Shown in pieces: positions 45,809 through 45,860 of a stretch of 64,000 nucleotides of DNA. Position 1 is the first letter of the stretch. Each line of letters begins with the position of its first letter. The notes below the pieces were generated by a model. The model was not told where the DNA came from, did no database searches, and saw only the letters and a program-made list of their open reading frames with translations. The position numbers and the translations under genes are program-made. Source of the stretch: Cutibacterium sp. (GTDB lineage: Bacteria; Actinomycetota; Actinomycetes; Propionibacteriales; Propionibacteriaceae); NCBI RefSeq assembly GCF_030525615.1, contig NZ_JAUNEJ010000001.1:688696-752695 (forward strand). The letters are read 5' to 3'.

Positions 45809-45860
45809 GGTGGGTGCAAAAGTCGTGAGGGTGGGTGCAGAACCCGCGAGGGTCGGTGCA
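45809..45860. repeat. Three GGT(G/C)GGTGCA repeats at exact 21-bp period
   Basis: Starts at 45809, 45830 and 45851; the spacers also resemble each other (aaagtcgtgag / gaacccgcgag). Confidence 0.85.

Follow-up and report, generated by a model that had tools for sequence, protein, structure and literature searches.

The 64,000-nucleotide stretch of Cutibacterium sp. DNA analysed here (the window) carries, beside the remains of two adjacent large serine recombinase genes (rec1 and rec2), an array of short direct repeats that marks one end of a degraded prophage and recurs at the same end of related elements in other genera. We consider it moderately probable that this array is an accessory protein-binding array of the attP/attL arm, that its candidate binder is HTH-Zn, a small protein with a helix–turn–helix (HTH) and zinc fingers, and that it persists in this genome as a fossil. 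The recurrence of the array suggests that a family of serine integrases may use extra protein-docking DNA, and the array in this genome is of interest mainly as an entry point to that family.

The array (array 1) occupies positions 45809..45860 on the plus strand and consists of three 10-bp motifs with a period of 21 bp, separated by unconserved 11-bp spacers. Sequence reading and a pattern search place exact copies of GGTGGGTGCA at 45809-45818 and 45830-45839, while the third copy, at 45851-45860, is GGTCGGTGCA, which matches GGTGGGTGCA at nine of ten positions. The preliminary description had reported an exact 21-bp-phased triplet; the phase is exact, and the one mismatch in the third copy makes the triplet itself inexact. 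The plus strand around it reads ...TTCATTTTGATACA TGGCTCTA GGTGGGTGCA aaagtcgtgag GGTGGGTGCA gaacccgcgag GGTCGGTGCA..., and Tandem Repeats Finder returned a period of 21, 2.5 copies and a score of 69. Only one further triple of this type exists in the window, an eight-residue tandem repeat in coding sequence (CAGTGTTTTCGC, three to four copies with a 24-bp period, at 17843-17930), located within the long minus-strand ORF 16149-19436. Rfam 15 covariance models gave no match in 45400-46100 at E values up to 1, nothing matching 45760-45990 was found in the GenBank plasmid and phage collections, and elsewhere in this Cutibacterium assembly there was neither a second array 1 nor another recombinase of the same family.

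The DNA from about 45776 to 54114 has the appearance of an 8.3-kb deletion derivative, or remnant, of a temperate prophage inserted at the 3' end of the tmRNA gene ssrA (54112..54482, minus strand, identified with ARAGORN), which provides the B' side of the integration target. At the left end lies the P' arm, the putative element-side attL half-site TTACTTAGACGTTCATTTTGATACA (45776..45800, plus strand), where conservation across elements starts and upstream of which the flanks differ. A gap of 8 bp, TGGCTCTA (45801..45808, plus strand), separates this half-site from the first repeat. The array was originally described as lying downstream of recombinase 2, and it does lie about 130 bp past the rec2 stop, yet rec1 and rec2 are each broken by two frameshifts. 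The rec2 pseudogene (45990..47377, minus strand) shows the Pfam domains Resolvase, Recombinase and Zn_ribbon_recom spread over three frames; rec1, which encodes the shorter large serine recombinase (47381..48892, minus strand), is also split over three reading frames. PF00239, PF07508 and PF13408 were matched in the pieces from the window and scored above cut-off in intact relatives, and the Rec2 of the window is 62-69% identical to the intact Rec2 of three of them (L026, L034 and L035). An Abi_2 gene, a PolA fragment and a Cro/C1-type HTH_26 gene (52465-52668) also lie between ssrA and array 1.

The right end carries a second set of repeats, array 2 (TTGACG four times at spacings of 22, 21 and 20 bp; 53853..53921, plus strand), about 170 bp inside the right half-site. 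The latter is the P arm, the putative element-side attR half-site TGTATCAAAATGAGCCTCCTAGTGG (54090..54114, plus strand), which abuts the 3' end of ssrA with an overlap of CCA. Positions 45778-45800 and 54090-54112 form an inverted repeat, and no long direct repeat was found between the ends of the relic. Sequence reading revealed a hairpin, GGAGGCTCA/TGAGCGTCC, with a T-run overlapping the P arm (54078..54108, minus strand; noted also as 54078-54120), which appears to be an element-borne terminator supplied to ssrA; it is kept in six other loci (L048, L033, L016, L183, L185 and L186). Hairpins downstream of ssrA in three Cutibacterium loci (L066, L069 and L070) resemble a variant P arm, TGCATCAACGCCAGCAGGCACTTAG followed by TGGAG, and may be scars left as attR by other members of the family. 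To the left of the relic, the segment 44301-45775 is low in GC (49-50%) and includes a URO-D-like gene at 44559-45590; this flank has no counterpart in nine other Cutibacterium genomes. The segment is probably what is left of an earlier insertion into this ssrA site, and the empty site could therefore not be reconstructed in the genus. The system appears to be dead in this genome, and array 1 to be a fossil marking the true end of a dead prophage, because both recombinases are frameshifted, the HTH-Zn gene is absent from the window (deleted), the third repeat is mutated and the assembly holds no intact copy.

The preliminary description placed the start of the array 12 bp inside the left crossover, on a palindrome model in which strands would be exchanged within GATACA, between GATA and CA, at a palindromic host attB. 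That model predicts an empty site in which P' precedes P, an order that was never seen; the opposite order, P-O-P', is contiguous in five places, spanning 50 bp in L018, L026, L030 and L156 and occurring also in L177. It is also opposed by the conservation across genera of the 25 bp to the left of GATACA, where the flanks differ. A contiguous P-O-P' is what would be expected of an attP or a tandem junction. Homology to related elements begins at 45773-45776, with unrelated flanks upstream, and this starting point, together with the contiguous P-O-P' sites elsewhere, argues that the crossover probably lies within the TGGT common to the two junctions (45773..45776 and 54112-54115). By the same evidence, array 1 starts about 33 bp inside the crossover, rather than 12 bp, and 8 bp past GATACA (45795-45800), which forms the outer edge of a 25-bp half-site. 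Comparison with other genomes revealed the same right-hand arrangement: where ssrA stands next to TGTATCAAAATGAGCGTCCTAGTGG in the window, C. porci, C. kozikiae and Corynebacterium sp. have the 3' end of tRNA-Ala(ggc), and the P arm abuts tRNA-Ala or tmRNA in six other genomes. Two features of an attP are thus found, namely a quasi-palindrome of about 50 bp and hybrid attL and attR sites without long direct repeats. In the circular phage, attP would be the 50-bp quasi-palindrome TGTATCAAAATGAGC..GTTCATTTTGATACA, with the crossover between its halves. Its P' side would be followed, after exactly 8 bp, by two to five copies of GGTGGGTGCA, one per two helical turns, and its P side would carry the terminator hairpin and the second array (TTTTGACG-type).

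We scanned one genome per species, covering 185,579 species, for two exact copies of the motif 21 bp apart. The scan retrieved 58 loci, about 30 of which, from about 20 species in two phyla, share the layout GATACA-N8-[motif-N11]x2-5. They belong to Cutibacterium, Lawsonella, Corynebacterium, Arcanobacterium, Schaalia, Actinomycetaceae, Bifidobacterium, Alloscardovia, Helcobacillus and Christensenellaceae/Clostridiaceae. At least seven classes of inner half-site sequence can be distinguished, but motif and geometry are constant: the gap measures 8 bp in 23 of the 30 loci with a placeable half-site, and 17-18 bp, that is, one helical turn more, in four Christensenellaceae/Clostridiaceae loci. 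Over 87 array units, the spacers carry 0.06-0.18 bits of information per position and only a core of 10-11 bp is conserved, the information at the core positions being inflated by the way in which the loci were found. Since the spacers are unconserved, the array is not a recent duplication. The adjoining gene varies (rec2, an ABC-F ATPase gene, a gene for a 184-aa membrane/coiled-coil protein or assorted cargo), so the array is a property of the element's end rather than of a gene. Homologous elements thus carry the array at a 21-bp period and a fixed distance (8 bp in Actinomycetota; 17-18 bp in Clostridia), rather than lacking it, the outcome that the preliminary description had set against its proposal. 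That proposal, of accessory sites at the att sites of tandem large serine recombinases, gains support from the comparative evidence, with the crossover relocated and two of the suggested binders disfavoured.

An independent sample consisted of 73 non-redundant metagenome loci chosen by Rec2 homology alone, in which the 300 bp after rec2 were inspected. Repeats of at least 9 bp at a distance of 19-23 bp were present in 13 of these 73 segments, compared with 31 of 2251 controls (odds ratio 15.5, p = 2e-10). On inspection, the metagenome arrays precede a TGTATC/TCTATC-AAAA arm. Some of their motifs are related to that of array 1 (TGCACCCCC and TGCACACCCC), and others are different (ATGAACCC, GGCAAAAT, CGCTAACGC and CTTTTTCACG). 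Some of these arrays are probably counterparts of array 2, given that the module may lie at one arm or the other. Arrays were detected directly after rec2 in only about 18-30% of the metagenome sample, which counts against accessory sites. Moreover, the canonical array is absent within 4 kb of several intact recombinase pairs, in A. hippocoleae and others; either it is not obligatory, or it lies beyond cargo, or it has diverged past detection. Its absence near these pairs led to the recognition of tandem junctions, of a variant motif and of array 2. Equivalents of array 2 (TTTTGACG, TTTCGACG or TTTTGGCG) lie at the corresponding position of the A. pluranimalium prophage (L186) and of two other loci (L184 and L030), and adjoin rec2 in a further two (L157 and L130). 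A search of 400 genomes of the class with the P'-arm pattern returned only the copy in the window, and a P'-arm 17-mer had seven matches in IMG/VR, three of them unrelated. A sister group of the module resides at tRNA-Gly(ccc) (L158, at G051:C1 1176577-1176900, and L076), with CGCTAACGC-type repeats 10-20 bp from a TTATCATTTTCGACG arm.

Intact prophages of the family have the same ends as the relic. A 46-kb prophage of A. pluranimalium is inserted at tmRNA, with P arm, hairpin and array 2 (TTTTGACG four times) as in the window. Its far end, 46 kb away, carries in succession the HTH-Zn gene, rec1, rec2, the gene for the 184-aa protein, three copies of GGTGGGTGCA and the P' arm, and the first spacer of its array 1 is identical to that of the window. 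Prophages with equivalent ends are inserted at tRNA-Ala in C. silvaticum (52.7 kb) and Actinomycetaceae zg-1166 (56 kb). The gene order in L026 is tail fibre, holin, Amidase_2/CW_7 lysin, HTH-Zn, rec1, rec2 and array.

Small derivatives also exist. They include units of 3.5-4.2 kb, some of them recombinase-less, and the array is retained in recombinase-less units of 2-4 kb (L048, L016 and a cassette that spans L026 and L047). This last, a 2-kb cassette without recombinase genes (L026 7100-8000 plus L047 1-1100; JAUNVG010000016.1, ~15100-17100), adjoins a prophage of the same family and is bounded by a P arm on one side and a P' arm with three repeats on the other. By sequence appearance, its cargo comprises a toxin–antitoxin-like pair of small ORFs, a shortened HTH/transposase-like piece and a GNAT-like acetyltransferase. 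In A. hippocoleae, tandem units lie behind tRNA-Ala(ggc) (G051:C1 2010160-2014500; L170, L049) in the order tRNA-Ala, E1, junction, E2, so that the newest unit adjoins the tRNA. A 4.2-kb unit contains a rec2 remnant, an ABC-F ATPase gene and an array of three repeats, and is followed by a P-O-P' junction and the next unit; this arrangement implies insertion into an attR-like site. ABC-F ATPase genes directly follow the array at L042 1329-3038, L005 718-2427 and in L030 (C. namnetense, Lawsonella and A. hippocoleae). The ABC-F family includes ribosome-protection resistance proteins.

The module of the intact relatives comprises three genes, encoding HTH-Zn (135-153 aa), Rec1 (about 415 aa) and Rec2 (about 520 aa). 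Rec2 has a coiled-coil region after its zinc ribbon, which Rec1 lacks. HTH-Zn, encoded just upstream of rec1, combines an HTH_23-type N-terminus with two CxxC...[FY]CSxxC zinc fingers. Its family corresponds to phrog_2308, for which no function is annotated. The gene was present in at least 70 of 80 metagenome loci, which had been collected by Rec2 homology alone. An AlphaFold2 model of the protein shows a three-helix HTH (mean pLDDT 81). A fold search with this model gave weak HTH-domain matches only, and its nearest PDB neighbour was the HTH of Sin in 2r0q (rmsd 0.6 Å over 36 columns, E = 0.32, a statistically weak match).

A natural swap bears on which of these proteins would read the array. 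The A. pluranimalium prophage (L174) and pair A of A. hippocoleae (L168) have Rec1 proteins that are 87% identical, Rec2 proteins that are 85% identical and nearly the same P' arm. Their HTH-Zn proteins, however, are only 43% identical and differ in the third helix (SRNTVKSICRRAN versus SRDQIRAYVTRTG), and the array changes from three copies of GGTGGGTGCA to two of TWGGGGGYR, with the same +9 start position. A different metagenome and a different isolate supply two further instances of the TWGGGGGYR variant (L140 and L196). This swap, a single comparison with replicates of the same variant, favours HTH-Zn as the likely reader. Trees of 58 modules were compared with the motif labels, a comparison that is informative only in the actinobacterial clade, the labels being too sparse among Firmicutes. 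In that clade, array classes follow the Rec2 and HTH-Zn trees and not that of Rec1, which is incongruent with the other two (the pairs are L026 with L076 and L168 with L174); lineages have thus exchanged the middle gene of the module among themselves. One observation counts against HTH-Zn as reader: helix 3 of the HTH is near-invariant across elements with strongly different post-Rec2 arrays (GGCAAAAT, ATGAAC...). Counterparts of array 2 may be among the arrays compared; otherwise the HTH would not be what reads the array.

The preliminary description had named the second recombinase, a directionality factor or a Cro-like protein as possible binders. We weighed an unlikely variant in which the recombinases themselves bind, the repeats being extra half-site-like docking sites for Rec1 or Rec2 that form a regulatory synaptosome without HTH-Zn, as do sites II and III of the res sites of Tn3 and Sin. 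In an all-against-all comparison, in which many loci are incomplete, Rec1 and Rec2 were the sole proteins common to all clustered array loci. The 21-bp unit is about as long as one serine-integrase half-site, the array class tracks the Rec2 tree, and Rec1, without the coiled-coil insertion of Rec2, would suit an architectural role. By sequence reading, TGCACC resembles the outer arm word TGTATC at four of six positions, but this resemblance is weak and is missing in the other motif classes. More tellingly, the array motif differs between L174 and L168 despite the similarity of both recombinases, and the Rec1 tree does not agree with the array class. The second recombinase is thus not favoured as binder, and neither is a Cro-like protein, since HTH_26 is not common to most array-bearing elements. 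The latter point also weakens the idea that a phage regulator (for example, the HTH_26 protein encoded at 52465-52668) uses the repeats as operators or roadblocks to control transcription across the prophage end. Phased operator arrays with 17-21-bp units are typical of temperate phages, an HTH_26 gene is present in the window and in L030, L039 and L157, and the asymmetric array motif can be likened to GGTGGMTGTCAAG, the 13-bp stoperator consensus of mycobacteriophage L5. We nevertheless hold this idea to be quite improbable, as neither promoter-like nor terminator-like sites were detected in 45400-46100, the array is located downstream of convergently oriented genes, its neighbour differs in identity and strand between loci, and its separation from the half-site is set to the exact base pair. 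The stoperators of cluster A mycobacteriophages (the L5 gp71 sites) are many, dispersed and intergenic. Dispersed stoperators were rejected here, because the motif clusters at the array in the 46-kb A. pluranimalium prophage, with three copies there, one other exact copy and five with one mismatch; the three off-array copies that were checked, including the exact one, all lie inside ORFs.

Direct repeats phased at about 20 bp are likewise found in the iterons of replication origins and in the TerS sites of terminases, the elements derive from phages, and a pac-like site would help small cassettes to hitch-hike. An origin or a pac/cos site of the excised phage or cassette is nonetheless a very remote prospect. 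The array has no linked initiator or terminase gene and lies at the far end of the genome beside the lysis and integration genes; no Rep-like gene was found beside the array in any locus, the neighbours being recombinases or cargo. Cassettes of 2-4 kb without replication genes keep the array, and neither the base-pair-fixed spacing nor the helical register with the half-site is explained by such a function. Chance, or a functionless slipped-strand duplication, merits next to no credence. Short-spaced exact 10-mer pairs are admittedly common in the window (nine, versus a mean of 2.3 in shuffles), but an in-phase third copy with at most one mismatch appeared in none of 200 dinucleotide-preserving shuffles. 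The comparative data refute it, the core being kept and the spacers not in about 20 species of two phyla.

Returning to the preferred reading, an accessory array read by a small protein, monomers most likely of HTH-Zn would line up on one face of the DNA beside the recombinase-bound P' half-site. The anatomy, conservation and phasing of the array, its independence of the adjoining genes and its co-variation with HTH-Zn are observations; this binding and its effect on recombination are what we infer. By bending or stiffening the arm, the lined-up monomers would determine which sites can pair in synapsis. Integration would leave the array in attL only, and it could thus distinguish attL x attR from attP x attB, a role analogous to that of the Xis-type factors of tyrosine integrases. 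More broadly, and tentatively, widespread phages and cassettes of host-associated Actinomycetota and Clostridia might share a three-protein serine-recombinase machine. Its arm-bearing attP, with phased arrays on both sides, would be read by a small protein that sets directionality and allows SCC- or integron-like capture of units beside tRNA-Ala and tmRNA. Serine integrases are prized as tools and are thought to need two short sites and no accessory DNA. If the proposal is true, no earlier serine-integrase system would have combined lambda-style accessory DNA with a DNA-binding directionality factor, and the present one would represent a second, unexplored control of directionality in serine integrases. 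It would also account for the build-up of defence and resistance cassettes behind tRNA-Ala and ssrA in Actinomycetota of skin, mouth and gut, and could yield new components for genome engineering, for instance integration or excision gated by an array.

Among known systems, the classical phage serine integrases use a single integrase and minimal att sites without accessory DNA (PMC5499577, PMC2475636). Those of phiC31, Bxb1, TP901-1 and A118 share with the present system the same domain set, a quasi-palindromic attP of about 50 bp and a prophage context beside lysis genes. The present system differs from them in its two integrases, its third protein, its arrays on both sides of attP and its insertion into attR-like sites beside a tRNA, which yields tandem units. 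As regards minimal att sites, a conserved phased array abuts the P' arm here, which speaks against such sites in this family, and some intact recombinase pairs are without the canonical array. Among small resolvases, the site II complex of the Sin res site has been solved (PDB 2r0q; PMC2428073). Sites II and III of Tn3/gamma-delta and site II of Sin are likewise extra sites that build a regulatory complex beside the crossover site, and Sin site II also contains direct-repeat motifs. However, those enzymes are small and recombine res x res within one molecule, whereas here two large integrase-type enzymes would act on attP x attB, the two to five sites are of monomer size and repeat strictly every 21 bp, and the binding protein is probably a separate one.

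Tandem defence cassettes have been described alongside SCCmec (PMC11470126). Like the SCC elements of staphylococci with their CcrAB recombinases, the present elements encode a shorter and a longer large serine recombinase side by side, and insert at the 3' end of a conserved gene. Their units also accrete beside the target, giving tandem arrays with internal att junctions, and they include recombinase-less cassettes with defence or resistance cargo. CcrB is the best NCBIfam match for both Rec1 and Rec2, but the scores (126.8 and 151.1 bits against a cut-off of 900 for CcrB; 66.8 and 77.6 against 700 for CcrA) fall far short of orthology. The targets are ssrA and tRNA-Ala (tRNA-Gly in the sister group) instead of rlmH (orfX), the full members are prophages of 46-56 kb, and there is a third gene, for an HTH/zinc-finger protein. 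We know of no description of phased repeat arrays beside an SCC att arm.

The anatomy of the site resembles that of tyrosine integrases, where Xis/Cox/Apl arrays and Int arm-type sites (lambda, P2, L5) are short direct repeats in helical phase beside the core, as found here. Both have repeats on one arm only, so that attL and attR differ, and a small HTH protein encoded just upstream of the integrase genes. The differences are that only serine recombinase domains (Resolvase, Recombinase and Zn_ribbon_recom) were found here, that the period is 21 bp rather than about 10, and that the candidate binder has two FCS-type zinc fingers. To our knowledge, the characterised directionality factors of serine integrases act on protein and not on DNA. 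The literature searched contained no description of the module or of its arrays. This is a serine-integrase module with features undescribed for its class in that literature; it resembles SCC/Ccr in accretion and a lambda-type attP in anatomy, and is a member of neither group.
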